A DNA stretch of 42,972 nt, from positions 1 to 42,972 of the forward strand of contig NMRA01001174.1 of assembly GCA_002633005.1 (NCBI GenBank). The letters run 5' to 3'. Made by a program: the position numbers and the translations under genes. Shown here one piece after another: positions 1,049-40,590 of the stretch (positions are counted from its first letter, which is position 1; the number at the start of each line of letters is the position of its first letter). The stretch comes from Phoronis australis (lineage: Eukaryota; Animalia; Phoronida). The notes beneath the pieces were generated by a model. That model ran no database searches and had not been told where the DNA came from. It saw only the letters and a list, made by a program, of their open reading frames with translations.

Positions 1049-1105
1049 ATGGCTGCTAATAAGAAATCAAGGCGTTTACTTCTCAGTGAGGCACAATTGG
1101 AAAAG
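1049..1105 (+). CDS. Exon 1 (MAANKKSRRLLLSEAQLEK)
   Basis: ATG in context gatATGG, 19 open codons, consensus donor AAG|GTGAGT, phase 0, joins exon 2 in frame. Confidence 0.65.
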
Positions 1106-4100
1106 GTGAGTTTTTAAAATGTTTTGCCACCTGTTCGGGCCCAGCTTGATCGTCCCAGCGTAACATGTTTATGTTAATATGTTATCGAAGTTTGATTGTT
1201 TGACTCTCGGCGTTACGAACACAATCATCGTGAAGTTCCAAGTTAAGGTTTAGGCCCATAGGCGGATTTAGGGATGGCCCACTGCAGCTGGCCCGCCCTA
1301 GCTAGCTGCTGCCGCAAAAAAAGAAATCACACTGAGTGTTCCAGCAACAGCGAAATATTGAGTGCAGTAACTAGGATCACTGGTAGCGGATGTGGGAGCC
1401 GGGGGGGGGGCTCATACCTAGGGCGGAATCGTGTTCCCGTTTTTTTTTTTGTTTTAGTCCCGGCCGACGACAGGGTTTCCGAACACTGAGAAAGTCCACA
1501 TCCCCGGTCCGGAATGGCGGGCGGCCTGTGCAGATACAATCGCGCTTTTCCCAATTCCCTGAGGTCAACGTACGTCTTGCCCCCTCCCGTATCCTAGATC
1601 CGCCACGAGGCCTATACGTAATTAAGTGAATATACTCCCGCTCTTGTGTTGACAAAAAGACTCGAGAACCTCGTCAGTACTCTAAAAATGGCTTCACTGA
1701 GACTAGGAATTTCCCAACGTCACAGGGCAAAGCGGCGAGGGATGAACACCCCTTTGTATAGATAATGGTCAGAAGCTTAGGCCGGACTATCTCTGCAAGA
1801 TTGGATGATACGTGCATCCTTTTGAGGCTGTGAACATTATATAACTAGACCACTAGTGGCTGTAGCACCGACTGAATTAAGGGTTCGTTGTTCGGCAGGC
1901 CAAGCAACTCATCAATCACAATATTCCTATCTGCGCCGACGCACTCACTGGTCACCAGATTTTTTTCTTTTGTCTCATCTTTTTAAAAGTCCTATATGAT
2001 TGGCAGCACGTGTGTTTAAAATGTGTGATCTAAGCTGTTTCAATTGTGCTGGAGTTACATGCGGGATGGACGTCTGCGCTTTTCATCCCTTGTCATCGCC
2101 GCGTGCACTGTCCCACCGACTCTTATACCAAAAAACTCTTAGAAAAATAAGACAGTTTTAAGTATGTGCGCGTGTGATAGCTGTGAGACGTTAATTACTA
2201 CAGTCTACACTTCTGAGAAGACTTGCCTCAGTGTTCATGATTTCACCTGGGTTAAGTTCGGTAACCTACGCGATAATCTCGGCTATAAGCAAGACCTTGC
2301 GAAGCAAGACTGCTCTCATTGGTTACTGGCAACCGTTCAATTGTCCTAATTAAGGTCATGTTCTATAAATAACTTCATACCGCTGCATACCAAGCCAAGA
2401 AAAAACAGTGAATGTTGACTCGCTCACATTGTCCTAGGCAATGACCATCGCCTCTGTTGGCCCGAAGCAGAGGCGATGTAGAGGCTATAGGCGCTCTGTA
2501 CGCCGGAAGCTTTTCGGCGAATTTTGCCTCGCACCGACTAAACCATCAAAGTCACGTTGTTATAAATACCTTTTGCGCATAGAGGAACACCTTAGGAGGT
2601 TGTCGATGTGTTTAATTCCTTCCAACTCGAACAAATACTCCCGTTATGAAACTTTTTCTTCGAGCAGTCCCTATTTCAGTTCCCAAAATCGTGAACTCAC
2701 ATTGAGTAAAGTCGAGTGATGCTGTTGTGTCGCAGGGCTGATCTAAGTCAAAGGACACGTCAAGTTAAAATCCAATAGTTGATGAAATAAAGGATGTGTA
2801 TTCCACGTTGTCTGCGTTTCTTACAGTCCAAAATTCTAAGCTCACGTTGATTCACAGGCTTTCGCAGGTTTTCAGTCCCTCAAAATTCATCGCTGCAGCA
2901 CTGCTGATACAAGGTTATAATAAAGGTGGTGGTCCACGTTGACTCATTTGTTAAACCCACCCAGTCGCTTTAAATGCTGTCATTCTGTTAGTATTTCTAG
3001 GATTTATTATGACAACAACAACTACAACAACAACAACAACAAGATGACGCCACAAAATCCTTAATAAATATATACCCGAGCCGATACCTCAACGACAAAC
3101 AGACTTCGAGAGGCTACGTGAATGAGCAAATAACAACTCGAGACGATGCCCCCTAAATGGTACCGAAGGGCAAAATACCTACCCCAAGACAATGTTTGAG
3201 AAAAGCAGGATACCGACTACAGTAGGCAGCACGCTATGGGCGGCTGAAATTGAACATACATGTAATAGGTGGAGATGAAAATGGTGGTAAACTGGTTTCA
3301 GTAGGTGAAATGGACACGAAGGTCAACGTGGACACAATGAGTCAGGAGACCGATACATGTGTTTATCATTTGTTAAGTTTGTATAAATGCAGGGTTATTA
3401 TGAAGCTTTGATATGAACATGGGTCACAGTTTGAAAATTTTTCATATATTCTTCAGCGTCAAGATCCATGAACAACCCAAGCCCTCCCTGACTGTTCATA
3501 TCATCTACGAAAGCTCTCTGCTTGTAAGGATGATTCCATGCTGGTAGTGAATGTAGACTATGTGATTTAAAATCCGTTTTTTGTTATTTTTTTCAGGTTC
3601 TAGAAGCTGCATTAGATGGCAATTGTTCTGAACTTGTGAAATATATAAAGCGTGGGTGGGATGTGGACCAAGTACTGAATTCGTCGGTGAGTATTCACAC
3701 ATGAAAGCTCATATGATCATCATTGGCTTTTGAAGTGCACCTTTTTAAAGAAACAATCATTGTTACATGTTTCATCAGGATGGCATTGCTTTCCTGGTTT
3801 TCTGTTGAATATTTCTATATCAACACTCTATACTGTTAACCAAAGCAACAGGTGAACATCGTAGTAACATTACAACAGTGATAACAAAATATTCACTTTC
3901 AGCTGCAAAAGTGTAAATATGGCAGATGTTTTTCTTGATTTACGGAAGTATGTCGATGAGAAAAAAATATAATCAAGTTATCGTATAAAGACTGTTTAGT
4001 ATGGAAGTGCTGGAAACTTTATTAAGAAGCACTTTATAGACGCTATTGGGATAGTCATGAGAATCAGTGATCAAAAAAATATATTTACCATGGAATGCTA

Positions 4101-7100
4101 TTATTTTTTCCTGCAATATCATCGACTGTCTGCAGGTCCGCCAGAAGGATCCCGAAAATGATCGATGATAGTGCAAACAATTAGAAACTGGCCGATTTGG
4201 GCAGACCACAGTCGCACCGGAGAGACAGTCTTTGAAAAGTGGGTCCACCTTTTTTAGAGTTTAACAATAATCTTGACCTGAGTCTGTTGACAGATTTGCT
4301 TTGTTATTGTGCGGCGGTATAGGACTATAGGAAGAAAGAAGTTATTCTTTAAGAAAAAGTATTGTATAAAATGAATTTAATAATGCTATATAATTTCTAA
4401 ATTCCGTGTGTATATTGGGAGGGTGTGACATGTATCTATGCCTTGATTATTGTGGATTTACGAATGGCTCGACTGTAACATGGCGGAACTAAGGAAGGCA
4501 TGATGAAAGAGACCCTGGTAGAGATCGGTAGCTGTCTCGGGTTACGAAAAACTATCCAAACTCACGTGTTCTTTTTAAAATACACGGCGTAATCTCGCGA
4601 ATGGCCTAGCGAGTTCCTAGCGTTTTTGAACTCTACCCAGATCGAGTGGTTTTGGAATTTTGTTTTGCTTATATCATTTACTTTTTTAAGAACTTGAGGT
4701 GTTATTACCTAAATGCAATTTTCATTGCAATTGCATTTAGGATGACTTAAGATTTTTGACTATATTCGACCCTTTCATGACACCAGTAATGATTATTGCA
4801 AGCTTGATAATATGGTATGTCTAGCTCAAGCAAAAGTTCCCGCACAATTTACATGTACTTGGTGCATTAAATCACCATAGTCAAAACGTTTAAATCGTAT
4901 GTACTTATCAGACGATTCAAAACTTGCATTAAAGATGCTATACACTGTCAGTAAGTTGATTAGAATTTTTTGCGCACGGACACGTTAGTGTGGTTTAAAT
5001 GACATTTCATAATCTTCTATTATGGTTAGATGTCTTTACCAGTGTTTTTTGGGTAATAATTTCACCATCCAAACCCAAATAAGAATAGGTCAGTGTACAA
5101 TTGGGGATTCTAGACTAACACATTATCTCAGCCTTGAAGTTTACATGTTTGTACCTTTTACGAGTCCTGAGCCTAACCAAGATTCAGTTATTGTTGGTTC
5201 TTGGGATGGTTTCGAGATTTGGATAAAATTTGGCTCTATCACTGACTATGTCATGGGTGCTTTTGGAAGTCTGTAATTGATGTAGAGAATAAAAGGGAGA
5301 CAAGTTTTCCGTACCCCTTCATAAACATAATCTGGTTTAGAAAATACGTCATCTACAAGTGGTCGTGCTACCCGATTTGATAGATTACATGTCATGTGGG
5401 AAGTGAAGAGTGTATGCAGAGTATGCAATATTCGATAAGAGACAAATTCGTAAAAGAAGAGATCTTGTGAAACCTTGTCAAATGGGGATTAATTATCCAA
5501 CATTAAACCCATTTTTATATTGTTATCGTATCTCATGAACAACTTTAAACAGGAGAGAGGTAGTACTCTTTTCACTCATAAAACCAAAGTGAAATTAAGT
5601 TATTGAAAATGAGGTTCTTGTACATTTTATTCACTTTTAAAGAAAAACTGCTGTGATTCTGAATTCTTTTCTAATTGGGTACCATAATCCCAGTTTCAAA
5701 TAGAAGGTTGTCTCCTGTCAGTAGAATTTTGTTGAATAAATTAATGATCAGTAGAGGCATATCTTTATATTGGTGTAATTATTTATTTGTAATTTAGTCG
5801 GAGTAATCACCTTTTTACATGAATGTTTAATCGATTCTGCATATTGGAACACACAACACTTTTTGTTACCGACAGTCTTTATTCCTCCTCGTTCAAATGT
5901 TCCGAATAAAACTCTACACTCAACGGTACATAGATGAAGTAACTGACCTAACGACATAATTGACTTATCCCCAGGATTTTGGGTGACGGCTTACTGACCA
6001 AACAGAATGCAGCATTTTTGAAACACCTTCGTTTCCAAGCTGCCATTTTACCCGACAAACAACACGTCGCCATGTAAAATTTATTGTTTGTTTGTCGACA
6101 TTTCGCAAGGGGCGGAACTTGCGATAGGTCAATCAAAAGGTATACCTAACACGATATTTTGAAGCATACGGGGTACTTGTTCGATTCTCAAGTGGATATA
6201 AAATGACTCAGTAATGCCACCACAGAGCATAAGCTGGATACTTTCATGTTGGACAAGCTTACGCCTGTAGTCCCATGTGAACCGTTCGTTATCAGCTGCC
6301 CGGTCGTGTAACTTGAACTGACTGTACTTCGGGAGCATGTTTTCGGTTAAACAGAATTTGTTAAATGCACGACACTTTTCATTGCTCACAGTCTTTATTC
6401 CGTTGCGTTCATACTTTCGGAACAAAACTCTACTCTCAACTGAACATAGATACAGTAACTGACCTAGCGGCATAATTAAAAGACATACGATATTTCGAAA
6501 CATACTTGTTCCATTCTCAAGTGAAGATAAAATGACGCAGGAATGCCACCACAGAGTATAAGCTGATGACACACACAGTGAGACACGGCATCTGTGAAAC
6601 ACCGCAAAGAATGACAAACGAAAGGGGTCACGAGAAAGTCAGGCAAACAACTGTAACGTGCAGCGCAACCCTGTTTGCTGCTCATTCAAAACAGGCGTGC
6701 GTTCAGTAACGCTAGGACCTACGCTAGGACCTAGCTAAAATCTAGCCAAAATCACTTGTTCTCATTTAAAATACTTGGCCATATCTCACGTAATTTCACG
6801 AAGTCTTGCTTTTTAGCGAGGTCCTAGCGTTACTGAACGGGAGGCTGGCTTCTTAATTGCAGTCAAAAGTGATTAGAATACTTTCAATCGCAGCACATCG
6901 TATTCTACGTACCGAATTGACGTGCTTTCCACAATTTCTTCACGGGTGATTTTACGTTCGTGAGGTTGCAAACATTGATCGATGATGGTTTTCTAGTAAA
7001 TGTGTGACATGTGGTAGGGTCTCTTCGACTTGGAAATTTGGCAAATAATCTGGACTGTTCGCAAACAAATGTTATTTTAATACCCACATCTTAAAAGATG

Positions 7101-10100
7101 TTGCTTTATTTGTGAAGTAATCCAAGCAAAGAGAACATAAAATATGATTGGTATCTCCCATCTGGTGATTTTATAAAAAGTCATGAGTTAATTTCGTTCG
7201 CCTTGCCAAATCAGTGAACCAAAAGTCGTCTCAAACCATTCTGTAAACATGTTACACAACATGCACGGTGTCTGCACTTGAAAAGGAAGGCAAAACGAGT
7301 ACGAAAAACTATAGAATACAATTTAGTTTTGACGGAATTGGTAAACCCGCCTAAAATTTACCATTTCAACTCAATGGCAGGTTACACCTCTCGTTCTTTG
7401 TCACATTATAGACCAAATGATATGGTGCATGCATGCAACCAGCCTAAAAATGGCGGGCTCCAATTTTGAGAATGGGTACCTTTTATTGAAAGAAACGGGG
7501 TACATGTACGTTCACAGCTATGAATTGGGCATTCGCTGAATTTAGTTGGTTCCTGCCTTATCAGTGGCCTTTCGTCTCGTTTTTTCTGAGTTTTTGTTTC
7601 TCTGATGCGGAGTAAGGCTCAACATTTAAAAAGAATAGTATTAGTTTACATGTGCATTATGAGATGTGACATTAATTCAGCCCACAAGTCTTGATCACTG
7701 TGGATTCAAGTGTTCCTTACGTTTTAAAGTATTTTAAAAAATGCGATACCGTCATCTTCAATCCACCATGTCATAGACAATCCTTTCTAAGCAAAATCAG
7801 GCGAAGAATGGATGCAGTGGAAAAAGACGCACCAATTTTGGTATTATCAAAGCTTAAATCTGTAACACTATCGTGTACAATTGGCAGCATTTTAGACCAA
7901 TATGAAAAGAAACAAATGCTTACTTCTTGCGTCAGGTTTTCATTTGACACAAAGTGATAGAGGTCCGTATACAGTTTCACCAAACAGACAGTTTTATCAA
8001 AATTGAGGTTCAAGTCTGAGAAATTTGCAGACTGGTCGACTAATGAGAGTGATGACTTGAGTGAACTTTCCTAGCCTTCGAAAAGAGCAACATCATCAGT
8101 ATATTGCAACAGTTTGCACTCCGTATTTTCAAATTCGTTTCCTTTGCATCATGATTTTTTCCTGAACAATATCTGGAGAAAGATGTCACAAGTGCAGCAA
8201 GTTGCACCAGTTTAAACAACGTCTAGACAGCACCCGAAATCTTGCAGCAACTCCATTCGAAGAATAACATATTCTACAACAGTGTTGTATGTGGATGGCT
8301 CTGATGCCTACTGCTCTCTGCATATAACCAAAATAAGGAGACAGAGTCTACAACCGCAGTTGGTTGAAAAGAGTTCAGAAAATATGCAATATTGCATTAT
8401 AACAAGATTTGAATTCTCTAATAGTGCTTCAAACCAACTTCTAGTACATTCTGCAAAGTTTGTGAAAAAGAATTATTTGTCTCATAAAATTCATGTGCGC
8501 ACCCAGCGGGAGTGAGTCCCCCAACTGGCGAAGTGAATTAAAAGGTCAGCCTCAGAGAAACAAAAAGTCCGAGAAAATGAGACAAAAAGTCCACTAAAAA
8601 GGCACAAACGTACAATTCACATCTCTGGACGTGGTACCCCGTTTTTTAGTCCTTCGGCTTTTTTGTATGTAAAAGGTCCACATCCTCTGAAATTCGAGCC
8701 CCCCATATTAAAGGTTGGGTGCGCGCATGAAAAAGATTGGAAGCAGTAGTCCAAGCAAGGCATGTATATTCTCCGATTTAACGTCTCGCCAAATAGACCT
8801 TTTGAATATCAGGGAGTAACTGCATTTTGACTCGATCGGCAACAACACCTGAAAAACATGCATTAAGCAAAAAGAAGAGTTTCCAATTCTTTAGCTTATA
8901 ACGAGTGTTTTTCTTCTCAGGAATGAGCGTTTTTATACAGTACATGTATCTTGACTCTGTAATTCAGTGGGTCGTCTGTTTTAACTACAGGTGTAGTTAG
9001 CAGTTCTCTGTAACATAGGTAGCAATGATTTTCAGAAAAAAAAAACATCCATTGGAAATCCATCTAACCAGGCAGGTTTTTCGTATTTCACAGTTTTTAA
9101 ACCATCTGCTAGGTCTTCCATAGTAAATACAGATCCAACCTTTGCTAACTTCACGTAATTTTGGAACGACGGTTGCCGATGTTGGTGCTTTCTCACCTGA
9201 CATACTCCCTTGTCTACAGTCAGGATTCTGGGTCGCGGTTATTAGTATCCTATCCCATACCAGTACTTGTTCGACAGACAACTATAGATTGATACGAAAA
9301 ATCACATACATTAGTGAAGCTATAGCAAATTTCCACTGAACACCATGTAATAACCTCTAACAAATTTGTGTAAGGAACAACGAAATAAAGAGGAAAGAGG
9401 GGACATCAATACCGGGTGAACACGAAATACAGTTGTATGGTAATATCAAAATAGGTTATTGGCAGAAGAATTAAGTTCCTGAGGGTGAATATCGGTTGTA
9501 AAACCTTTTGCACAGACAGCATTGGGAAAAAAGGCACGGGGAACACCTTCAAATTAATATGTAAGCGGGTAACAAATGCTCTAAAAACCCATATTCATAT
9601 AAACTCGTTGAAACCATTTTTACCTAAATTAACCTTCTGTGCAAGACCTCTGTCCAGTCAAAGAATCCAAACCCTAATTTTTAAGTCGTTCCGTGAGTTG
9701 AAATGACGTCGCGTGCTCCGCTTTAAAAAGCAGCGCTTTGCACGGCAGTTCTTACGTGCACAAGTGTTAGCTACAAGGGGCATTTATTAATCACGATGAA
9801 ACGACTAGATTTCAGGTGTACAGTTCCGATTTGACCATGCGTATTTCGTCATGATGATTCCGACTGAAGCTGCTGATAAATATTTATCTGACGTAGTATT
9901 AATACATACAGGCTAGGTTTTTGAGAGAAGATTTGTAGAAAATCCCAGCAGTTAAGGACAAACGACGTGATCGTTGTTCACAGATTCCGGATGAGCTGTT
10001 CTAAGTAACAGCGATCACGTAAGCGCAGTTGCCAGGAAGACTTTTATTATCAAATTGTTGCAGGTTTTTCAGATTTGCTCACAATTCTGTCTTCACGCCA

Positions 10101-13100: not shown

Positions 13101-16100
13101 TTTCAAAGGTAGGGAATACTGTACATGTACAGTGTAGGCGCAAACTTTAGTTTAATTAGTCGTTGTTACGAATGATCGCCGTTTAAAGAAATCAAAAGAC
13201 GTTAAAAGCAAGAAATGATGCAGTACCATGTTTCTGTGCTATGCAACCACCAAGGCGTCAATGTTTGGATATTCTTAACAACCACAATACATGTATTTTA
13301 GCCACCCGCAACATCTCTTCTAATTGTCTTTAGCTGACGTTTCAATTGGAACAGTACTTTTTCCAAGCGAGTTTTAACAATCAGTGACGTAGTCAATTGA
13401 AGACACTAGGAGTAAAAAATTTTCATGGTCAGGTGTTTACGAATAGAAAAATAAAATAATCGCTCACAATTTTACGTCTGCTTGTTTATACATGTTAGTC
13501 TCAATAGCTACATGTACCAACTCAAAACTTGCCTGCTGAAAGAGAAGTCGTGTTCATCGTTTGTAGGGTTGTAATTTACTCGCTTTGTGTCTTTTGCGAT
13601 AAGAAAAACGAGACGCATGTTCAAGCATTATGTTACTTTATATTTCCGAATCATTATCCCCTGATGGGACCTCGACCGTGCACAAAAACAACAGGATCAA
13701 GCAGTGTCGCAATGCGATACTAAATTTATCTGAGATAATGTAATTGAATAATCAAGACATTTTACTTAAAAAATTAACTCATTTTTTTCACCACAAACTT
13801 TGAAAAGTTGATCGTTCCAGAATTTTTGTAAACGTCGCTCTTTTGTGACGTTTTATCATGTATTCTGCCATGACCCAGAACTGTCTTCGGAGCAACAACA
13901 AAATTATGGTCGGACCCACATGAGTTGCTTCATAATTGCCTGGTATATGCTGAGAAGTGTACTACATATAAAATCTCAGTACGCTTATGTTGGAAATTCC
14001 AAGTTGCATACATGGACTTGATACGAGTGGCCAAAACCCGTGCTCTCATAAGAATTTTGGTCTGTACAGTACTACTATTGCAATATGCTAACGTGTCGAG
14101 ACTGAGTTCAATAATAGGTCTTAGTTAACGGGAACGACGTAACTCTGTTTTTAAAATACACTTTAGCAACATTCTTGTCATGGTTGTGCGGCCGTATTTT
14201 GATGTTTTGCGGGCACTCGGTTGATGAAAGTGGATGATGAGATTAATCATTTCGAGTGAATGTCACCCTACTGAAGATCTTGTCTTGGAATTACACTTGT
14301 CAAAAAGTAAGCGAAAGTGACATAGGCCTAATTTTGTTATTTAATCGTGATGCTCCGTTCAAAAGGTCACTAATAAATGTACACTGTACATGTATTGTGA
14401 ACTCAATATTTATTTTTCAAAACAATTAAAACGAACGCAATGACATTTGCTTGATTTCAATCCGGCGGCATTTTTATCGCTCTGTATCAGATTTTGAATT
14501 CTCTAGTGAAATGAAGTACAGTGTTGACGTGCAAATGCATGTCTAATTATTGATGTCCAGATGGTCTTCTATAATAGATGTACTGGTGTAGACGCGACGC
14601 ATTGTATTACTTGAGTGATTTTAAGAAACAATTAAATTTTAAAGATTTATTTAGATATTTTTCAAACAAGCACTAGTTTTACGGTGCAATATGTTGCTAT
14701 AATTACGCATCATTTCCCATATTTTGTACTTATGTTTTACGGTTCATGTTATAATTTTTGGTATGAGAGCTATTACTATATTATACTGTATTATTTCCCA
14801 TATGTACACATCAGTAAGTTTTTTTTACATATTTTGCCATGTAGCCGTGTAGTTTAAGCGGCTTATGTTCAAGATGTTGAACTTTTTGGTAGTCCTTGTT
14901 TGCATGCCATTAAAGCGGTCGTGATATTACCGTTTCATATGAAGCTCTTTGAGTCCACATATTTTTTACCTTTCTCTCTTTGAGAACCATCTCAAGAGGT
15001 AAATCAGCGATCATCTCAAAATTTTCTAGCACAACATAGAAATTTGTATCCTTGTCGAAACAGCATTTAGAACGTCTGTGCGTAGAAAGAGTCAATTTAA
15101 TGTCAAAAACTCAAATTGCAACATCTTTTATTTCGTTAGTCACGTTCTCTTTAATTTATTTCTTGCGATAATGAAATGCCCCTTTAAATATATTCAAGAA
15201 CTGACAAATGTATCAATTTATCGCGTGTACACGCGAAAACTGTCTGGAAAAGCGCTCTTTTTAAAAGCAACGCTTCGCCTGGCCAGACCACTGCCACGTC
15301 GTCTCAAGAACAGAACAAGTTGGGTTTGCGTCGAAATGGGAACCACAAGATTGATTGATTTTCTGAATAGCAATCTTGATAAGAAGATTGATTTTGGTAA
15401 AATGTGTTTCTTCATGTGTTTAATTTGTAGAGCAGGGTTTATCATTTCCAGGATATTGTTCCTGCTAGNGTTTTGGTAAAATGTGTTTCTACATGTGTTT
15501 AATTTGTAGAGAAGGGTTTATCATTTCCAGGACATTGTTCCTGCTAGCATTTTGTTCGAGACAAGTGGAATTGTGTTCCCAGTGCCCGTGTTCCTGGCTA
15601 GTAACAAACCCTATACCAAACATTGCCCAACTTATATTTTCTTAAACATCTTCAGACTTCAGTTTCGTTTTGATAGTACCCCATGCCAATATCATATTCA
15701 CCCTATATTGATGTTCTCTTATCCTTTTATTCCCGATTGTTCCTAACTTTAATTTGTTAGAAATTATTTTGGATCTCAGGAAAAAGTGAAACAGTACTTC
15801 ATAAATTAGTTTGACTACTTGTACATGTATGTTTTTTCAATTCATGCGTCCAGAAGGAATTGGTTTGGGGTAGACCTAATTAAAAGAGATCAGACGACCA
15901 CGAAAGTTTTACTCATATAATTGCAGAGTATATTTGATTTTTAAATGTCTATTACATCATATTTTGTGTCAACATTTTTTCAGCAAATTAAATTTCGTCC
16001 TGTTCATCTGGCTAAAAACGAAAAGTGAATTAAACCATTTACTCTCATGAAATTGATTTCTTAAAAATGATTATTAAGTGTGAAAATCATGGTCATGTTA

Positions 16101-19100
16101 TTGTCAATAACAATGATTGTTCTAGCTACAACCAGTCGCCCATATTTTTAATGAACATGCCATGTCTTTGCTCTGAGGATTATTTCTGACACTAACAAAC
16201 ATACTACGAAAGCGATGTAAACTTGTTCTTTATGAATGATGATCTATTACAAGACAACTGATATATTGCATGATAAACAGAGAGTAGATTTAGTAATTGT
16301 GTGTACAATTGTGTTATTTCAACGTTTTCCGTGAAGAGTAATTAAGATTCACGGTGAAGTTAATGATTGTGAAGTTTGCTATAACTTGTTCATTGTTTCT
16401 GCAGGGTGACACAGCACTACACAGTGCAGCAGAGTGTGGACATACAGAAGTGGCGCGTGTTTTGTGTAAAGCAGGCGCTAACGTCAACAAGCAAGACTGG
16501 GTAATAGAAACTACTTGAGACGATTTTATAATTAAGACAATGTTATCTTTGTTACAAAGTTGTAGACTATCTGAAGTTTAACTAAACCTGTTGTGTGTAA
16601 ATACACTTTTTATTTCTCATCATTTCGACATGTATTTTCAATCTGTACCCGGTACATGTATCTTAAGAAACAGTGAGGTTTGAATCGTGTCAAGAATATA
16701 TTTGGCGACTTAACGTTGATATTTTTCTATTCTTAATGGTAATCGTCCATTCAACATTGCAACTTTATATTAAACAGGAACCCCTTAAACCGGTGTATAA
16801 ACACAACATGGAGGGGTCACTGTGAAGTTATGGAGGCGCTCAGTAATTTCTGACAGTCGACGTCTACACCATGTTCTGTTCTTATTTCAACGTTTTAAAA
16901 TCACCTGTACAACTTGAGTGTTGAAATCATTACAAGTATTGTAGCGTCTTAGAGGTGTCAGTAATGTTTCATTTATGTCACCTTACAAGTTCACTTTGCC
17001 CCGTGTATGTTAATTTGCTCTAAACGTTGATCGTCCATTCACACATCTCCATTATATATTACATAGTTGGGCATGACACCGCTGCACTGGGCAGCACTGG
17101 GTGGTCATACACAGACTGTGGAGTGTCTTGTGGAACACAACGCTACAGTGGATGTTCGTGATAAGGTAATTAATGACACACAGGTTATTTGGTTGAACTA
17201 GTTGTTTACACAAGAGATGATTAAAACTGTTGAAGAACAAATTTTGTAGATATTTTCCCAATTTAATGTCCTTAAACAGTGTCAAATTAAATGTCGTCTG
17301 CTTTCCAACAGAGAACTGCCAAAGCTGCATCCGAACATTTCGGTTAATCCATTATTGTTGTTTTATTTACCGATATATATTCTACATTTCGTCAAACAAT
17401 AGTTTCCTTCAGTCGATCTGGATCGCCTCATTTAGTTTCGGATTTATTTTCTACGTTATTTTGATTGTCCAACACTTTACAGCGCACAATTACTTGCTGT
17501 GTGTTACCGGCCTGTAACCAGACAGGGAACACTGAACACGCTCTGTTGCTTTGTTCTAAAACTTAACATTTCCATGTTGAAATCATTACAGGTATTGTAG
17601 CGTTTTAGAGGGGTCAGTAATGTTTCATTTATGTCACCTTACAAGTTCACTTTCCCCTGTGTATGTTAATTTGCTCTAAACGTTGATCGTCCATTCACAC
17701 ATCTCCATTATATATTACATAGTGGGGCGTGACACCGCTGCACTATGCAGCAGAGTGTGGTCATACACAGACAGTGAAGTGTCTTGTGGAACACAACGCT
17801 ACAGTGGATGTCCGTGATCAGGTAATTAATGACACACAGGTTGTTTGGTTGAACTAGTTGTTTACACAAGAGATGATTAAAACTGTTGAAGAACAAATTT
17901 TGTTGATATTTTTTGTAATCTAATGTCTCTCAACAATGTCAAATTAAATGTCTTAATTAAATAATCGCAAATTGTGATTTTGTTTGTAATTGCTGTCTCC
18001 ACACCACGTGGAGTGACGTGCACGTGACGTGACGTGCTCGCGACATTAAGTAATTAGAAACAGTTTTCTCTTCACCAGTTATACAATGAGCAATGGTTCT
18101 TTACTTGCATTTCCATATCACTCACTAAATTAATGTGACTCTGTTGTACTACATAGAATCAAACTGTGATATTTAAAACCATATTATCAATCGTTTGACT
18201 AAAACAGGTAAGCATTTAAGAAATATCGCTCATTTATATCTGAGTTTAAATGTCAGGTGTAGTCGTGCTCTGTTGAGTCACCGCTTTATACAGTAAGTAT
18301 GCAACTGATGGTGAAGTTCTGGAACAGAAAGGTATAAAACGTGACGTCCTCTTGACACACTCACTTCGCTATATTTAATTATGACCGGAATTCTCTCATT
18401 TTTGTTCACTTTAGAATGGAGACACAACATTACACCTGGCGTCGCAGAGTGGAAAGGCAGCGATCGTAGAGCTGCTTGTCAATGAAGGCAGTTGTGAGGT
18501 GACTGCCGTAAACAAGGTATCTCAAGAGTGCTGCACTCCGAGCTTAGTAAATGTTGCAATAAACGTGTTTTAAATGAATATTGAGTTCGAGGAATTGTTC
18601 ATTCATAATAAATATCTCATCAAAAATGAACAACCTCTTTACGTGGAGTTATACAAAGAGTCACTTCTTCACTGCAAGTACCTTCCCAGAACACGCAGTG
18701 CAACCAGAGTCGCTGGTGTGATCATACTATTGGCATACTAACTAAAAAACCAACCACACCATAAGGCGCCGAACACATACACAGATTTTAATTTTCTCAT
18801 CTCATAAAGTTTATGCAGGTTTTTAATCACGTTAGTGCGCATTTAGGAACCTCACTTAAGTTTTTTCAGTCAAGATTGCTTTAAAAAAGGACTATTTGAG
18901 CAATCAATTTTCTAAGTCACATTGTCGCAAATCCGTTCGGTGCAAACTTTTCGATAGAGTAGTAACAGAGCACAGCACTGTATACTCATCTGGCCCAGGA
19001 TATTCCGTGAATAAAGTCGCTTGAGTTGCAGTTGCTAGTGGAAAACATAATGCCCACACACAAAATGTGTGCTATGATCAGGATCAATCAAAATCGTTTC

Positions 19101-22100
19101 CTTTTGAGTAAAATAAATGAATATCTAAATATTGCGTTGAAATGTCTATTCCTGTTAACAATTTCAATGAAAGTGTCGAATCTCATCTTCTATTAATTAA
19201 TTAAAACCATTTCATAATTACCAAGTACTACAAGATGCGGATTTTTGTCTCAAAACCTTTTGTTGATGCTACGATGGTCAAGACAAAAGTGACAAGACTA
19301 AATCGCGATGTTTGGCGGAAATAAGAAATACGTAAACACTTTAGTTTGAAAGCCATCAAACAAGTTTGGTTCACCCCTCACAGTACCATCGTATTTCGGG
19401 TACCAGGACATAGTTCTCGGCGCAGCATCAAATGCTTTTTGGAATAAACGTTCTGGTCAAAACCTTCCGCTAGACGTGCGCTTTCATAGAAATGCAATTA
19501 CGCAAAAACTTAAATGAATGGACAAAAATATTCATATGTTTAGGAAAGATAAGAGACTCGCATTTCTTAAGATGGATTTCATGTTACGACTGAGACTAAA
19601 TCGAATCATTTTAATATCAAAAAAAACTTTGTTCAAATTTCAACATTGTAGTGAGAAGAACGGTTTGGGGGTTTCAAGTTGTGAGACTGAGTTCTTGAAC
19701 GTAGCATTTTCCATCATGTGTGCAATGAGTGTAATCTGTGGAGAATGTGGAAGTTTTAAAACTCTTTCGGTAATAGCGTTTTGGGGATGGTTTATTATTA
19801 AAATATTTATTCGCATTCCACTTTATAGTTTCAAATGTATGAACTAATAGAATGACAACCCTTTCGTATTTACTTTAGTCACTTCCATCATTATTAAAGA
19901 TGCTATATTACAGTATAATTCAATCACTTTCCTTTCTATGAGATTTATCGGGTAACATAAACTATAATCGATGACTATGGTGCAACCTACTTTAATTTCT
20001 TAGGTGTGAGCATTTTAGTACCCGGAAAACAAAATAGTTCAACAGAGGAGAAATGGACTGCAGATTACTCGAATTTGCAATAACCCCCTCAAAGTGTCTT
20101 ATTTGTGATCCGACTGCACGACTGTGTATGTTCCTGGCGTGATTTGATTTATGTACTCTGTAATGATGTTAACTTCCGAGCTCCATACGACGTAAATTGG
20201 CATGGCTTGTTTGTAAAACGTATTTAAGCCACCGATCCGGTCATAACCACCTTTCGCCGCCACTTGCACAATCTTTTTTCTTATAAATTGTGAATTTTTA
20301 GGCCCCCAGTTTCGGCTTTAAAAACCTCAGTTTCCATTATTTTTTTCCGTACAAATTGTAAGTCATTCTTGACGCATACCTGTATAAATTGCCAAGGAGC
20401 TCCTTACTGAAAGATGCACAAAATCGTACAAATAAACATGTAGAGAACTGGAAATGTGTGTATGTTTTAATATTTGATTGACGTTTATGAAGTGAAACTA
20501 CATGTGAAGGGTTCGTTGCTCTATGATTTGCATGTTTATGCTTCGACGAAAATCGGCAATTCTCCGATTTGCGAATAAAATCTGCCAATTATTAAAAAAC
20601 ATCTTCAGAAGATTGAGCTTCTAGACCCCCAAGCAACAAGTTCCGTAGATTCCAAAAAGGGCTAAGTATTTTAGTACTTTGATGTTTTAGGGCACTTTTA
20701 CCAAGGAAATTCAGTGAACCGAGGTGTAGAGCTGAGACAATAACTGTGGTGTGTCAGTAAACGTTTTTTTCATTGGTTTCCTTTTATAAATTCTGAATAT
20801 TTGGCATGTAAGCCAGTGTGTTTGTGTGTTTCATGTATTTTTACCCTACATGTATATGCGCGTCTTTAGGCCAACACGTAAAATGAAATATTATAAAGCC
20901 TACAAAACATGCAAGTATACAAAGGATATCCACCTGCGCCTATAAGAGAAGCATTATGCATGCGTTTGTGCGAAACATTTGAGTATGTAAATTTCCTTAT
21001 GGCAGTTATATTGGATATAGGTGCAAGTGCCTAAATGTGTGAACCACACAATGCTCTCCACTGGGTTACACTTTTCATTGTTTACTTAAAAAATTTCGTA
21101 TACTGTTCTTCTTTAGAATTAAAGTGCATTACAATGTGCCACGTAAACAAATCTCATACAGTGTATGCTCTAGTGGTCGAATGAATGTCAGTGGCATTCT
21201 GAATACGTGCTGTGTTGTTATTGAAACACAGAGGTTGGTTCCTGAAAGCTATTCCCACTTCGACAAAAGATTGACCAAATTCAGTTGTCGCGATATACAT
21301 GTAGGCTGAGCATCACCTGTTTTGTGATTAAGGCATTTTAAGATGGAAATCAGTGCTTGTCCGATGTTTCTTACACGACGACAATCTCAAGACTGTCGTG
21401 AACACATCGGCCTCGCGTCATCAGCTCATCATTTAGGCGAAGGTCAGTCGACGTCCGGTTGAGTGTCACCAGATCGCCAACAGATAATTCTACGACTTAA
21501 TCTGCCGAAAACACTTTGCCTAATGGTGCTTCAGTTGCTGCGTGTTGACATCGATGGCACGGACTGCGCTCCGGAAAATTTCCAAGCAATTGCCCGCCTT
21601 CCATCGACAAAAATGCGAGCCACCTAATTGTTTTAAACGTGATAGTGTCTTGATACTACCCACCAAGCACAATGATACCTTTGTTTCTGTTTGGCTTACT
21701 ATTATACGTGTGTGTTAAGGATTTGAATGCCCAACAGTCTACGTATTTTGATAATGCTTAAAAACATGAATTGTAACATTGTTAATGTTTGTAGTTTCTG
21801 AAACTAAACTACAAAATTTGATTTTTACCTCTACTACTCTGTCATTATTTGCATCACGTGACTTAACAGAAAGGAAATGTACATGATAACAAAACAAGAT
21901 TTTATTTCGTATAAATCTTTAAGATGAGATCTCAAAACGTTGTTACTGTTTCTAATACACCTGTTCGTTTTTTGTATAACTCGTGAAGATCCCTGTTGAC
22001 AGCCTCTCATGCAAAAATGCATTGTTTTAAAAACAATTACGTACAGTGTGTTGGCAAACAGTGCATAAAAATAGTTTCTGAGTCCGATCAATCCTTTTGA

Positions 22101-25100
22101 GATAGGGTACTCCGAAGTTATCCAAATTGGACATTTCCCTGGAACCCACACAATCTTAAAGAACAAGCGCCTCATACAAAGCTGCTGGTTACATATTTGA
22201 AAAAGCTTGAGTGAAGTCAAGGAGCAAAATTTACAAATCAAGTGAACAAATAAGTTACGACACACGCTGGTGTGTCAGATGCTATCTGGAGAATTACTAT
22301 CGACCACGTGATGCGTGAACAATTAGGGCATTTCACTTTGAATCTACATGCGCTATTCCCGTTCTCGTCCGTCTTTATTGAGAGTGTAATATCGCTCTAT
22401 TCTGTAATACCCGAAATTGTTCGGCAATAAAATGCCCTTCGTTATGTGACTGAAATAAATCATAGCTGTTTCATTTTGAACTTGGAGTAGTTTTTGACAG
22501 TTTAAANTGTCAACAATATATTTGGCGACTTAACGTTGATATTTTTATATTCTTAATGATAATCATCCATTCAACATTACAACTTTATATTAAACAGGAA
22601 GCCGTTAAACCGGTGTATAAACACAACATGGAGGGGTCACTGTGAAGTTATGGAGGCGCTCAGTAATTTCTGACTGTCGACGTCTACACCATGTTCTGTT
22701 CTTACTTCAACGTTTTAAAATCACCTGTAACACTTGAGTGTTGAAATCATTACAAGTATTGTAGCGTCTTAGAAGGGTCAGTAATGTTTCATTTATGTCA
22801 CCTTACAAGTTCACTTTCCCCCGTGTATGTTAATTTGCTCTAAACGTTGATCGTCCATTCACACATCTCCATTATATATTACATAGGGGGGCGGGACACC
22901 GCTGCACTATGCAGCAGGGTGTGGTCGTACACAGATAGTGAAGTGTCTTGTGGAACACAACGCTACAGTGGATGTCCGTGATGAGGTAATTAATGACACA
23001 CAGGTTGTTTGGTTGAACTAGTTGTTCACTCAAGAGATGATTAAAACTGTTGAAGAACAAATTTTGTTGATATTTTCCCAATTTAATGTCCTTAAACAAT
23101 GTCAAACTAAATGTCGTCTGCTTTCCAACAGAGAACTGCCAAAGCTGCATCTGAACATTTCAGTTGATTCATTATTGCTGTTTTATTTACCTATATATAT
23201 TCTACATTTCGTCAAACAATAGTTTTCTTCAGACGATCTGGATCGCCTCATTTAGTTTCAGATTTATTTTCTACCTTATTTTGATTGTCTAACACTTTAC
23301 AGCGCACAATTACTTGCTGTGTGTTACCGGCCTGTAACGAGACAGGGAACACTGAACACGCTCTGTTGTTTTGTTCTAAAACTTAACATTTCCCTGTTGA
23401 AATCATTACAAGTATTGTAGCGTTTTAGAGGGGTCAGTAATGTTTCATTTATGTCACCTTACAAGTTCACTGATCCCCTGTGTATGTTAATTTGCTCTAA
23501 ACGTTGATCGTCCATTCACACATCTCCATTATATATTACATAGGGGAGCCTGACACCGCTGCACTTGGCAGCAGGGTGTGGTCATACACAGATAGTGGAG
23601 TGTCTTGTGGAACACAACGCTACAGTGGATGTCCGTACTCAGGTAATTAATGACACACAGGTTATTTGGTTGAACTAGTTGTTTACACAAGAGATGATTA
23701 AAACTATTGAGTAACGAATTTTGTTAATATTTTTTGTATTCTAATATCTCTCAACAATGTCAAATTAAATGTCTTCTGCTTTCCATAGTCGGGCCACACA
23801 CCGCTGCACCTGGCAGCACAGGAGGGTCATACAGCCGTCGTACAGTGTCTCATCGAACACCGGGCCAACGTGAATGTTCCTAATGAGGTAATTATTGACA
23901 CACAGGTTGATGAACACAATACGTGACTAGGCTAATTATTGCGTGTTTTAATTAAATAATCACAAATTGTGATTTTGTTTGTAAATGCTGTCTCCACAGC
24001 ACGTGGAGTGACGTGCACGTGACGTGACGTGCTCGCGACATTAAGTAATTAGAAACAGTTTTCTCGTCACCCGTAGTTATACAATGAGCAACGGTTCTTT
24101 ACTTGTATTTCCATATCACTCGCTAAATTAATGTGACTCTGTTATACTACATAGAATCAAATTGTGATATTTAAAACCATATTTTCAATCGTGTGACTAA
24201 AACAGGTCAGCATTTAAGAAATCTCGCTCATTTATATCTGAGTTTAAATGTCAAGTGTAGTCGTGCTGTGTTGAGTCACCCGCTTTATAGAGTAAGTATG
24301 CAACTGATGGTGAAGTTCTGGAACAGAAAGGTATAAAACGTGACGTCCTCTTGACACACCCACTTCGCTATATTTAAGGATGACCGGCATTCTCTCATTT
24401 TTGTTCACTTTAGAATGGAGATACAGCATTACACCTGGCGTCGCAGAGTGGAAAGGCAGCGGTCGTAGAGCTGCTTGTCAATAAAGGCAGTTGTGAGGTG
24501 ACTGCCGTAAACAAGGTATCTCAAGAGTGCTGCACTCCGAGCTTAGTAAATGTTCCAATAAACGTGTTTTAAATGAATATTGAGTTCGAGGAATTGTTCA
24601 TTCATAATAAATATCTCATCAAAAATGAACAACCTCTTTACGTGGAGTTATACAAAGAGTCACTTCTTCACTGCACGTACCTTCCCAGAACACGCAGTGA
24701 AACCAGAGTCGCTGGTGTGATCATACTATTGGCATACTAACTAAAAAACCAACCACACCATAAGGCGCCGAACACAGACATAGATTTTAATTTTATCACC
24801 TCATAAAGTCTATGCAGGTTTTTAATCACGTCAGTGCGATACGAAGATATTCCGCGAATAAAGTCGCTTGTGTTGCAGTTGCTAGTGGAATACATAATGC
24901 CCACACACAAAATGTGTGCTATGATCAGGATCAATCAAAATCGTTTCCTTGTGAGTAAAATAAATGAATATCTAAATATTCCGTTGAAATGTCTATTCCT
25001 ATTAACAATTTCAACGAAAGTGTCGAATCCCATCTTCTAGTAATTAATTAAAACCATTTCATAATTACCAAGTACTACAAGATGTGGATCTTTGTCTCAA

Positions 25101-28100
25101 AACCCTTTGTTGATGCTAGATGGTCAAGACAAAAGTGACAAGACTAAATCGCCATGTTTGGTATGGTGGATCTTGAACACAAATAAGAAATACGTAAACA
25201 TTTTAGTTTGAAAGCCATCAAATAAGTTTGGTTCACCCCTCACAGTACCATCGTATTTCGGGTACCAGGACATATTTCTCGGCGCAGCGCATCAAATGCT
25301 TTTTGGAATAAACGTTCTGGTCAAAACCTTCCGCTAGACGTGCGCTTTCATAGAAATGCAATTACGCAATAAATGAATGGACAAAAATATTCATATGTTC
25401 AGGAAAGATGAGAGACTCGCATTTCTTAAGGTGGATTTCATATTACGACTGAGACTAAATCGAATCGTAATAATATTAAAAACTTTGTTCAAATTTCAAC
25501 ATTGTAGTGAGAAGAACGGTTTGGGGGTTTCAAGTTGTGAAACAGTTCTTGAACGTAACATTTTCTATGATGTTTGCAATGAGTGTATGCTGTGGAGAAT
25601 GGAAGTTTTAAAACTTTCGGTAATAGCGTTTTGAGGGATGGTTTATTATTAAAATATTTATTCGCATTCCACGTTATAGTCTCAAATAAATGAACTAATA
25701 GAATGGCAACCCTTTTCGTATTTAGTCACTTCCATCAGTATTAAAGATGCTATATTACAGTATAATTCAATCACTTTGCTTTTCTATGAAATTTATCGGG
25801 TAACATATACTTTTATCGATGGCTATGGTGCAATCTACTTTAATTTTTAGGTGTGAGCATTTTAGTACATAGAAAACAAAATAGTTCACCAGAGGAGAAA
25901 TGGACTGCAGATTACTTGAATTTGCAATAACCCCCTCAAAGTGTCTTATTTTTGATCAGACTGCACGACTGTGTATGTTCCTGGCGTGGTTTGCTTGATG
26001 TTCTCTGTAATGATGTTAACTTCCGACCTCCATACGACGTAATTTGGCATGGCTTGTTTATTAAATGTATTTAAGCATGTGCCACCGATCCGGTCATAAC
26101 CACCTTTCGCCGCCACTTGCACAATCTTTTTTCTTATAAATTGTGAATTTTAGGCCCCCACTTTCGACTGCGAAAACCTCAATTTCCATTATCTTTTCCG
26201 TGCAAATTTTAAGTCATTGTTGAGCGCATACCTGGATAAATTGCCAAGGAGCTCCTTACTGAAAGATGCACAAAATTGTATTAATAAACATGTAGAGAAC
26301 TGGAAATGTGTGTATGTTTTAATATTTGATTGACGTTTATGAAGTGAAACTACATTTGAAGGGTTCGTTGTTCTATGATTTCCGTGTTTATGCTTCCACG
26401 AAAATCGACAATTCTCCGATTTAAGAATAAAATCTGCCAATTGCTAAAAAACATCTTCAGAACATTGAGCTTCTAGACCCCCAAGCTACAAGTTCCGTAG
26501 ATTTCAAAAAGTGCTAAGTATTTTAGCATTTTGATATTTTAGGGCACTTTTATCAAGGAAATTTAGTGAACCAAGGTGTAGTGCTGGGACAATAACTGTG
26601 GAGGTGTCAGTGAACTTTTTTTCATTGGTTTCCTTTTATAAATTCTGAACATTTGGCATGTAAGCCAGTGTGTCTGTGTGTTTCATGTATTTTTACCCTA
26701 TATGCGCGTATTTAGGCCAATACGTAAAATGAAATATTCTAAAGACTACAAAACACGCAAGTATACAAAGGATATCCACCTGCGCCTGTAAGAGAAGCAT
26801 TATGCATGCGTTTGTGCGAAACATTTGAGTAGGAAAATTTCCTTATGGCAGTTATTTCCGATATAGGTGCAAGTGCCTAAATGTGTAAACCACACAATGC
26901 TCTGCACTGGGTTACACTTTTCATTGTTTACTCAAAAAATTTCGTATACTGATCTTCTTTAGAACTAAAGTGCATTACAATGTGCCAAATAAAGAAATCT
27001 CATACAGTGTATGCTCTAGTGGTCGAATAAGTGTCAGTGGCATTCTGAATACGTGTTGTGTATTACTGAAACAAAGAGGTTGGTTCCTGAAAGCTATCCC
27101 CACTTCGACAAAAGATTGACCGAATTCAGTTGACGCGATATAGGCTGAGCATCGCCTGATTTGTGATTAAGGCATTTTAAGATGGATATCAATGCTTGCC
27201 CGATGTTTCTTACTCGACGACAATCTCACGACTGTCGTGAACACATCGGCCACGCGTCAACAGCTCATCATTTAGGCGAAGGTCAGTCGACGTCCGGTTG
27301 AGTGTCACCAGATCGCCAACAAATAATTCTACAATTTAAACTTCCGAAAAACACTTTGCTTGATGGTGCTTCAGCTGCTGAGGGTTGACACCGATGGCAT
27401 GGACTGCCTTCCCGAAAATTTCCAGGCAACTGCCCGCCTTCCATCGACATAAATGCTAGCCACCTGATTGTTTTAAACGTGATAGTGTCTTGATACTAGC
27501 CACCCAGAACAATGATATCTTTGTTTCTGTTTCGCTTACCATTATACATTTACGTGTGTATTAAGGTTTTGTATCCCCTAATTCAGCAATGTGCGTATTT
27601 TGAAAAATGCTTAGAAATATGGATTGTAACAGAGTTAATGTTTGTAGTTTCTGAAAGTAAACTAGAAAATTTGTTTTTTACCTCTTTACTACTATGCCAT
27701 TATTTGCATAACGTGACTTAATAGAAAGGAAAGGTACGTTGATAACAAAATAATGATATCAGGTTTTATTTCACATAAATCTGTTTCTAATACATCTGCT
27801 CGTTTTTTGGAAAACTTTCATGAAAATCGTGAAAATCCTTTTTGACAGCCTCTCTTGCAAAAATGTCATGTTTTGAAAACAATTCCATACAGTGTGTTAA
27901 CGAACTGTGCATAAAAATAGTTTCTGAGTCGGATCAGCCATTTTGAGATATGGTTCTCCAAAGTTAGCCAAATTGGACATTTCCCTGGAACCTACATGTA
28001 CACAATCTTAAAGAACAAGCGCCTCATACAAAGCTGCTGGTTACATATTTGAAACAACTTGTGTGAAGTCAAGGAGTAAAATTTACAAATCAAGTGAACA

Positions 28101-31100
28101 AAAAAGTTACAACACACGCTGGTGTGTCAGTTGCTATGGAGAAACAGTAACGACCACGTGATGCGTGAACAATTAGGATATATCAATTTGAATCTTAAAA
28201 ACAAATTCTATTGTATGCACTATTCCCGTTCTCGTCCGTCTTTACCGAGAGTGTCATGTCATTCTATTCTGTAATACCCAAAATTGTTCGGCAACAAAAT
28301 GTCTAGTTTGTTCTGTGACTAAAATAAATCAAAGCTGTTTCATTTTGAACTCGGTTTAGGTTTTGATAATTTAATTTGCATTTGCACGAGTTGTTCATTC
28401 AGCAGTGCAAATTTGTTTTTTGTTTGTCAACAAATTTCAATACATCTTGTAGGGAGGCAACACGTTGCTGCACAGCGCGTCTTCGCATGGCAAGCTAGCA
28501 GTTGTTGAACTGCTTCTGAAAATGGGTGTCGATCCGACAGTTGTTAACACGGTAAGGGTACATGTATCAATCAAATTGTGTGGTACATGTAGCTGTATGC
28601 TATCTGTGTCTGTATTGGATGTTTGCCAAAGGATAGGTAACCGGTGTTTGTAGGCATCATAACTCATTACAATTGTATATGTAATTATTGTGTATCTTCT
28701 GGTACAATGGAACAGCGTCGACGGTTGCTGGCAAAAGTCCTTTTCTACTTTTGTGTAAGCATCGAAGCGATTATCGACACGGAATTTTTAACTAATTTAA
28801 ACTTTTCATTTGATGTAGGAGCCAGATCACTATGTGATTGCTTAAAATTTGAAGAACCAACAGTTAAAAGAAGTCAATAACTTAAGTGAAGTATTATCAT
28901 TTCATTCTCCACGTTGTGTAATCGTTTTCTCTGTTTAATACGCCAATCTACCAGCCTCGCATTGCTCATTTGGAGATACAGTGTACATGTAGGTGCAGGT
29001 ATCGGGTTCGTATTGGTCCAGTTCACGTGCAACTTTAGCACACGGTAGGAAGTAAATTTTACATGAGTTGTCTTGCTGTTCAGTGTACTCTTTAAACTTA
29101 GCTATGTCTTGCAGGACGGACGAACAGCTTATGATGTCTGTGGCGACAGCTGTAATGTGTTTTTTAACAAGGTCGACGATGAGACTATCGAGAAAATAAA
29201 GAAAGTTCTTGAGGTAGGTAGTAGGGAAAAATAATCAGATTCTTGCTAAAAAGACCATATCGCTGCTTTTGTGATTAATGTAATAAACGCCATATGCACA
29301 GTTGGGAGAAAGTGCCGTGTTCGAGACCGGATAGGGACTGAGATGTTTTCAGACTTAACTATAAACCACGTGATGCGACCAACAGATGGCGTGTAAGACG
29401 ATTGATAATTCTCAGTTCTTGTATATTGTTTCAGTCTTATTTGGTTACAAATATACACCTCGCTCAGGCGGGTACAAGGAAGGTTTTCTCTCACTGCACT
29501 GGTTATCCTTGTATCATTTAAACAGCTCAGGACATCATGTAGTAAATACTTGTGTTTAGATTTTTGTTTTATTTTAATTGACAAATCGTTGTTCACTGTA
29601 GAAGCATATGCGACTCAAGCAGCAAAGCGGAAAATCACCGTCAGATGAAGACCCGGATGAAAATCTCCTCATATTGTTAGGGAGTCTGGAGGGATATCTA
29701 AATTCGAAACGTCCAGACATCCCTGTCGGCGAGTTGGACGTCAGCGTAAAAATAAAAAAGAGAGAGGACGGCACATTCCAAATGCTGAGTGTGGATACTA
29801 AGCTGATGGGTACGCCTATTATACATTGTGACTAAGTATAACCTAACATACATGTAAACTTAGTCTTCATAGACCGTTAACTTCCATATATAACGATATT
29901 TTAATGGAGGCAATTTTAGAGTTCAATACTATAAGCTGTCATTAGAATGGCGAAATTTTGCTACGAAGTGCACGATGACAGATCATTTCCAGAAGAATAG
30001 AACCGTTACTTGTTTCATTTCATTACCTGTCTGATGTATTCAAAGACAAGAGGTGACTATGACTTGCTTGCCCCTCTTCCCTTACCGCTGGGCTTTGTCT
30101 TTTTACAAATTTCGTCCCAGGCGCGTGCTACTCCCCTCTCAGCGACGCCTTTCTATTCCCCGGTGCCTGGATAGCTGCGTTTCGCGTCTTGCGGGCGTAC
30201 CAACGTTTCCGACGAATTAGTCTTTCTATATCCGCAGTACCCTTCACTCGGGCATCCGTGACCTAGTACATGTAGATAATATTTACACATAAACCAAGTG
30301 AAAACTCTTGTTTACAAACACGTTCCCAGCAATTGTCGATTATTCGGTTTCAGCACAAAGATTTAACCACCACTGCTACAGTATTCTGAGTCACTTGTGA
30401 TAGACTACATAAAACCATACTAAATTTTCACATCACAGGTTTTTCCTCAAGTTTAGGTCCTCTTTTGGTTTAGCGTATATGCAAATGATTTCGTAAATAG
30501 TGTGGATTTTTTCAAGTGCCTTCTGAACGCAAAGCATGCCATTGTTATCAATGGCTATTGTCAGTGTATTACGAGCCAGGACTAGGAATTACATAGAAAC
30601 TAGCTACGTATTGGCTTCCTGTAAGATAAACTAATGGTCAAGAAATTCAACTATATGAGTTTTAATTGCAATTATTAACTTTGTAAAATTTCGACATCGT
30701 TGTTAAGAACCAATAACTCATAATTACAAGGTGGTTAATGATGTAAAGAAGATGTTATTTGTGTACAAAATTACATTTATGTGTGGGATGTCCTTGTTTT
30801 CTCGTATATTCTCGTTTTCTGCAAACAACACAAGTGATTACTAGTGATAATTCTCCACGAAAATATAGAAAGTTGATGACAATCTCCGATTATAGTGAGA
30901 AAAATGCGTTGTTATATAATAGTTAGGTACTGAAATCGTCAAGTGGTTTATTTTAAAAATAAAATGAACACCAACGAGTTTGACTGTGCGTGGGGAAGTG
31001 GTATCGCTCAGCAATGGAGGAATAATGCACGGGAACAGGGCGTGTTTGTCCGCCACGCAGTGAAAAGTGGTTCATGAGGGCAAACTATGTTCGCTAGAGG

Positions 31101-40520: not shown

Positions 40521-40590
40521 ATGATGTCATTCTTGGTGTACTTTACAGTGCTGTTGCTTATTACCACCGCCTCGAGTGAAGAGGGAATCA
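40521..40590 (+). CDS. Signal-peptide exon of a kringle-domain gene (MMSFLVYFTVLLLITTASSEEGI)
   Basis: Acceptor tctttccag at 40519, hydrophobic core followed by an ASS cleavage-like site, phase 1 donor GTAAGC. Confidence 0.75.

Follow-up and report, generated by a model that had tools for sequence, protein, structure and literature searches.

In brown algae, the LRR-ROCO and NB-ARC-TPR candidate receptor genes encode one repeat per symmetric exon, gain and lose such exons, and show positive selection on the binding face of the repeats (PMC3341825, PMC11378527). In the fungus Podospora, ANK NLRs harbor near-identical ankyrin repeats that vary in number and are variable at the inner helix and the hairpin (PMC4986451, PMC13449251). 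In turn, SV40 and poxvirus mutants are restricted by FAM111A (PMC9798293), an intracellular protease whose activity requires dimerization via its first helix (PMC10920703). Here, we analyzed a gene of the phoronid Phoronis australis, located on a stretch of 42,972 nucleotides (contig NMRA01001174.1 of assembly GCA_002633005.1, forward strand; hereafter the window), in which an array of one-exon ankyrin repeats precedes a FAM111-type protease. We consider it fairly probable that this array recombines and that, together with the protease, it forms an innate immune sensor-effector.

This combination of an ankyrin sensor and a protease, with no NTPase, is akin to the exon-shuffled receptors of brown algae and fungi but belongs to neither family. 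Unlike the brown algal receptors, it carries ankyrin repeats instead of LRRs or TPRs, has no GTPase or NB-ARC domain, uses a protease as a direct effector, and is found in an animal. RNA joints leave no room for a Roc-COR or NB-ARC domain between E12, E13, and E14, the introns before E3 being outside this read check. The gene also differs from the Podospora receptors: a Pfam scan of the exons and RNA joints found no NACHT domain, every repeat has its own exon flanked by shared intron sequence, and the array is on the N-terminal side of the effector.

An earlier note, made from the sequence of the window, had described one ankyrin repeat per symmetric exon over positions 1,049 to 29,213. Indeed, all 12 exons of this span (E1 to E12; Table 1) have AG/GT ends, are free of stops, and are in phase 0-0. 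E2 to E12 measure 90, 96, 99, 99, 102, 99, 99, 99, 102, 99, and 99 nt, which confirms the range of 90 to 102 nt. Assuming that half of all introns are in phase 0, finding this phase in about eight independent introns has a chance probability of about 0.004. The rule of one repeat per exon holds for E3 to E11, which are nine full repeats (Pfam matched Ank in all five scanned, E3, E4, E6, E9, and E11), but not for E2 and E12, which are cap-like and gave no Pfam match. From E4 onward, as had been noted, the exon boundary has a constant place, with the acceptor separating ankyrin positions 2 and 3 (consensus numbering of PMC4308713), while the E2/E3 boundary lies one codon later. The hairpin is split by the intron, residues 33, 1, and 2 coming from one exon and residues 3, 4, and 5 from the next, so that each new pair of neighbors would make a new loop. 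In support of the earlier reading, hairpin positions 2, 3, and 5 are among the most variable. A six-frame scan matched only the nine repeat exons (E < 0.04) and revealed no inactive or inverted repeat exons in the introns, in contrast to the brown algal genes, where the introns contain dead and inverted repeats (PMC3341825, PMC11378527).

The variation within the array is concentrated at the binding face of the A cassettes (E4, E5, E7, and E8). Exactly positions 2, 3, 5, 10, and 13 show three or four residues, and six further positions show two. The binding surface of the ANK-N5C library consists of positions 2, 3, 5, 10, 13, and 33 (PMC4308713), and the variable codons thus coincide with five of the six randomized positions (P = 2.5e-5). 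Across these six codons, 9 nucleotide columns out of 18 are variable, every one changing a residue. The remainder of the exon has 9 variable columns out of 81 and the flanks have 27 out of 278, with no difference between these two (P = 0.68). Pairwise divergence at the binding face is 4 to 9 of 18 (22 to 50%), compared to 344 of 5,299 positions (6.5%) for the introns of the two 5.85-kb units described below, i.e., 3 to 8 times the intron rate in all six A pairs. Because this exceeds the intron rate, a mere tolerance of change cannot account for it, and it indicates diversifying selection on the binding face of these four cassettes. As in designed ankyrin repeat proteins (DARPins) and in ANK-N5C, the same positions vary on a fixed scaffold; unlike these designed libraries, the array is natural, encoded by exons, and tied to an enzyme.

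The gene does not end at position 29,213, as the earlier note had it, but continues with E13, E14, and the last coding exon, joined to the array in three of three raw RNA runs under the same species label (X8 is one of these; triple counts are reads in the three runs, in the same order). Reads were mapped to positions 22,510 to 32,700, which comprise the second 5.85-kb unit and the 3' part of the gene, unit 2 also attracting reads that stem from unit 1; 15 of 84 splice-joint rows were seen. The gene is expressed, and the modeled joints are spliced on the sense strand in all three runs: E9-E10 (38, 32, and 182 reads), E10-E11 (18, 23, and 141), E12-E13 (18, 14, and 184), and E13-E14 (11, 7, and 199). 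The E11-E12 joint fell outside the rows seen, though both exons are covered by reads.

By homology, the C-terminal domain is a FAM111A-type serine protease, with its His and Ser motifs in the order of the family. The FAM111-like protease, from which the array probably derives its purpose, and the possible assembly join of the higher-order duplication had both been missed by the earlier note. E14 and the last exon were placed with a profile built without the window rows (Table 1). A profile of relatives (14 rows, two of which are the window exons) matched the FAM111A structures 8s9l (E = 1e-20) and 8s9k (E = 1e-19), the next-best match reaching only E = 0.002. A segment predicted to match the first protease helix, the dimerization segment of FAM111A, precedes the first strand. 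Loose RNA ends at 31,500 and 31,947 indicate exon sequence inside the assembly gap, and a DNA contig carries 1,098 letters at the place of the gap. The predicted protein of about 750 amino acids has no signal peptide or membrane helix (maximum 19-residue hydropathy of 1.16 over E1 to E14, assuming that E1 is the true start), and it is predicted to be intracellular.

The protein thus resembles FAM111A and FAM111B (8S9K, 8S9L; PMC9798293, PMC10920703) in having a C-terminal intracellular Trypsin_2-type protease, the same His/Ser order, and a predicted helix before the first strand. However, vertebrate FAM111 proteins carry two N-terminal ubiquitin-like domains (UBLs), and those of mammals a PIP box, where our gene has the ankyrin array. 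We found neither feature in an N terminus made of ankyrin repeats and a 69-residue linker; in domain make-up the protein is therefore FAM111-like and not a FAM111A orthologue. FAM111 members of soft coral and lancelet are likewise described without UBLs (PMC9798293). The word ankyrin does not occur in the available text of that review, and the literature searched, leaving aside supplements and two listed papers in which both words occur (PMC13245274, PMC12396287), gave no description of an ankyrin-FAM111 fusion.

A HMMER library search with the last exon gave 15 proteins at E ≤ 0.001, one of which (P0011) was a spurious repeat match and was excluded from the alignments. Single-sequence searches with this exon found no match among the longer proteins (108 candidates) or in PDB, and an Atlas search returned generic trypsin-like leads only. 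The named relatives were mostly mollusc proteins, followed by vertebrate FAM111A, and the closest sequences were uncharacterized mollusc FAM111-like proteases (P0016 to P0022 and P0069 to P0071; 33 to 43% identity over the last exon). Scans of one set of 7 molluscan proteins and another of 12 proteins identified mollusc relatives with HEPN, CCCH plus Rel, Roc-COR, Death, or DED domains, which together are characteristic of immune proteins (PMC8195603). The closest relatives carry varied N-terminal domains of immune type but differ from the phoronid protein in that no relative examined harbored ankyrin repeats (0 of 20 and 0 of 61 in precomputed Pfam, 0 of 89 with our own profile). The searches depend on shared words and scored the top 7,994 candidates and cannot prove the absence of ankyrin fusions. 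The mollusc FAM111-like proteases are themselves expanded, fused to varied domains, and all named uncharacterized, and their sequences suggest an overlooked effector family.

Some variants lie in the 3' part of the gene. At 29,666, 153 X8 reads leave E13 into open-frame sequence outside the window, the E13-E14 joint being intact in 199 reads; this branch is probably an insertion allele in the linker. In the 3' untranslated region, RNA reads skip 63 nt with GT..AG ends (32,453 to 32,517); the same skip is present in a DNA contig, so this is a deletion allele. A 33-nt insertion variant occurs at 32,580.

The flanks of the A cassettes suggest how the array was built. Upstream, 7 of 148 columns vary among the four copies, and downstream 20 of 130; the earlier note had put these flanks at about 145 and 130 nt. 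The downstream part of the shared block corresponds to the A-to-C intron up to the C acceptor, and in E4 and E7 it extends to a remnant of the acceptor still used by E9, indicating that the A cassettes were copied from an A-to-C pair. Informative sites within and near the cassette support each of the three ways to pair the four A exons, in different parts, from which we infer exchange between copies. The two 5.85-kb units differ by 174 bp carrying E9 and its splice sites, which unit 1 lacks; this is the in-frame loss of one whole repeat exon and bears out the prediction that cassettes can be lost without a frameshift. The C exon is found in unit 2 only and additional, unphased variants occur in RNA, which may reflect a repeat-number polymorphism of the kind seen in Podospora. 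The reported period of 656 to 657 bp, on the other hand, does not reflect an array: it is a single interval, E4-E5, seen twice via the repeat of 16,688 to 22,505 at 22,508 to 28,374.

This duplication may come from the assembly. A single N stands exactly where the two units meet, and another (15,469) lies between two 79-bp copies (15,391 to 15,554) that probably represent an assembly overlap. Inside unit 2, 35 of 39 listed read variants (among the best-supported 40 of 1,035, and hence skewed to high shares) match unit 1, and in 26 of the 35 the unit 1 letter is carried by at least 90% of the X8 reads. A fixed duplication would give about half. We lean toward two haplotypes joined by the assembler, the remaining probability falling on a real but unfixed duplication, and either way cassette content varies between chromosomes. 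In the case of a join, the typical allele would consist of E3, several A cassettes, C, B, and E11. Contigs reach depths of 29 and 27 at E11-E13, of 98 at the protease, and of 152 at B, and those at the A flank sum to 370 to 680; these values do not represent a copy number but hint that some A cassettes are missing from the assembly.

Two features of the A-cassette introns were also observed. At 22,510 to 22,849, upstream of an A cassette, sense-strand RNA depth is about 10 times that of other introns; either this flank has many unassembled copies, or an additional or retained exon is present. Between A cassettes (23,169 to 23,281 and about 17,350 to 17,460), the spacer holds a very high-copy repeat with a contig depth of about 60,000, reads on both strands, and many loose ends; it may have marked a breakpoint of cassette duplication.

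Cassette diversity could instead arise mainly by alternative splicing, one array giving many isoforms by cassette skipping. All repeat exons are symmetric, alternative splicing of repeat exons has been reported for brown algal ROCO genes (PMC11378527), and exact GT..AG joints from E7 to E9 occur in all three runs (9, 5, and 43 reads). In X8, we found at least four sequence types of A-to-C joints (43, 67 to 69, 33, and 26 reads) and at least three of A-to-A joints (41, 21, and 43 reads), some with residues absent from the window, and a C exon starting with Glu was joined to two different A ends in this one run (67 to 69 and 26 reads). Read by hand, the C exon has three first codons (Ser, Glu, and Cys), Val-Gly-Trp and Glu-Cys-Pro open A exons, unlike the starts in the window, and a C exon ends in Cys-Asp instead of Pro-Asn. 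These variants again touch hairpin positions, and RNA of other animals harbors cassette variants absent from the window. However, three C starts and unseen A starts require extra genomic copies or haplotypes, and these explain the joints without skipping. The E7-E9 joints look like skipping of E8 but fit equally well with haplotypes or copies in which the last A cassette has the ending of E7. The A-to-A joints, present in all three runs, represent tandem inclusion rather than the mutually exclusive isoforms that the earlier note had suggested looking for. Mutually exclusive choice is the mode of Dscam-type arrays, from which this array differs in this respect. The missing B-to-A joint was rejected as evidence, since the expected E11-E12 joint is equally outside the 15 of 84 rows. 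Alternative splicing of repeat exons, a route to combinatorial diversity proposed in the earlier note, is possible, but as the main source of diversity we regard it as unlikely, and cassette variety likely results from DNA recombination more than from splicing.

Somewhat less likely still is an ordinary ankyrin-protease gene without immune role, whose neutral local duplications were inflated by an assembly join. One-repeat exons also occur in ordinary ankyrin genes, though we found none in the literature searched, both single Ns would fit a join, and binding-face positions tolerate change anyway. Tolerance, however, cannot exceed the intron rate, which the face codons do in every A pair, the remaining codons being no more variable than the flanks, and the RNA variants fall again at hairpin positions. 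Somatic rearrangement, with a different receptor in each cell, has been proposed for Ectocarpus (PMC3341825), and the long near-identical flanks are possible exchange sites. Yet each RNA run contained few abundant joint types and no long tail among the 15 of 84 rows, and it is not reported in brown algae either (PMC11378527); we consider this very improbable.

Several points weigh against an immune sensor-effector built from a recombining array. The six binding-face positions were picked after the variation had been seen. With the classical set of positions randomized in DARPins, the overlap is four of five (P = 0.0017), and two of the six pairs lose significance. Only four related A cassettes are available, and two of them may be allelic to the remaining pair; the B cassettes show no excess (pN 0.039, pS 0.040). 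Read-checked joints start at E7, the E1-E7 joints and unit 1 lying outside the mapped region. In the protease, only the His and Ser motifs are read, the catalytic Asp falling in the gap, and 10 of 12 relatives scanned had no domain beyond the protease (one of them without any family), an additional domain being present in 2 of 12.

For the recombining array and its protease, we propose that unequal crossover or conversion via the 90 to 98% identical intron flanks would add, remove, and mix cassettes in the germ line, each new neighboring pair giving a new loop. The array would bind a variable target, and a foreign or modified protein, once bound, would either pair two protease domains or lift an inhibition; pairing by the ligand is proposed because FAM111A needs dimerization to cut. 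Once activated, the protease would degrade the ligand or set off cell death.

Table 1. Features of the ankyrin-protease gene in the window
Feature	Position	Strand	Basis
E1, start codon, 19 aa, basic, no signal peptide	1049..1105	+	exon ends, hydropathy
E2, N-cap-like ankyrin half repeat, phase 0-0	3597..3686	+	exon ends; no Pfam match
Single N at unit junction, possible haplotype join	22507	.	sequence
E3, ankyrin repeat, 32 aa	16405..16500	+	Pfam Ank E 1.4e-10
5.85-kb unit 1: A1 A2 B1, C exon deleted at 17952	16688..22505	+	alignment
Shared A-cassette block (~148 nt upstream, exon, 130-145 nt downstream)	16919..17295	+	alignment
E4, cassette A1	17067..17165	+	exon ends, Pfam, alignment
E5, cassette A2	17723..17821	+	exon ends, alignment
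E6, cassette B1, 34 aa	18415..18516	+	exon ends, Pfam
5.85-kb unit 2: A3 A4 C B2	22508..28374	+	alignment
E7, cassette A3	22887..22985	+	exon ends, alignment, RNA joints
E8, cassette A4	23544..23642	+	exon ends, alignment, variant RNA joints
E9, cassette C, missing from unit 1	23789..23887	+	Pfam; RNA joint to E10
E10, cassette B2	24414..24515	+	RNA joint to E11
E11, last full ankyrin repeat	28453..28551	+	Pfam, RNA
E12, C-cap-like exon	29115..29213	+	no Pfam match; RNA joint to E13
E13, linker, 69 aa, phase 0-1	29602..29809	+	open frame; RNA joint to E14
E14, protease start with catalytic His motif, phase 1-1	31273..31500	+	profile positions 10-51, E 1.2e-4; weak Trypsin_2
Assembly gap over protease middle, ~111 codons, catalytic Asp expected	31712..31855	.	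profile positions 52-162 missing
Last coding exon, catalytic Ser motif GSSGSPG and stop	31948..32289	+	profile positions 163-275, E 2.8e-24

Outside this gene, a second gene starts on the forward strand at 40,525 to 42,480, with a signal-peptide-like exon near 40,525 and kringle-like exons at about 41,094 to 41,333 and 42,215 to 42,475, as judged by eye. A 47-nt inverted repeat (94%; 36,228 to 36,274 and 39,506 to 39,552, 3.2 kb apart) encloses a broken zinc-finger-like stretch near 36,880 to 37,320 and a gap, and is possibly a decayed DNA transposon.

A more far-reaching and tentative idea is that the locus represents a natural DARPin library, in which ankyrin cassettes, recombined between haplotypes and mixed further by exon skipping, aim a FAM111-type protease at changing pathogen proteins. 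If true, variable intracellular receptors would include a class without an NTPase, and FAM111 proteases would have served ancestrally in defense with swappable sensors. On the reading preferred here, the strategy of one repeat per exon of the brown algal receptors extends to an animal ankyrin gene with direct enzyme output, and natural selection uses the positions that engineers randomize in designed ankyrin proteins. The FAM111 review suggests that viral defense came first in the evolution of this family (PMC9798293); an invertebrate FAM111-like member with a hypervariable array would make this defense-first idea testable.

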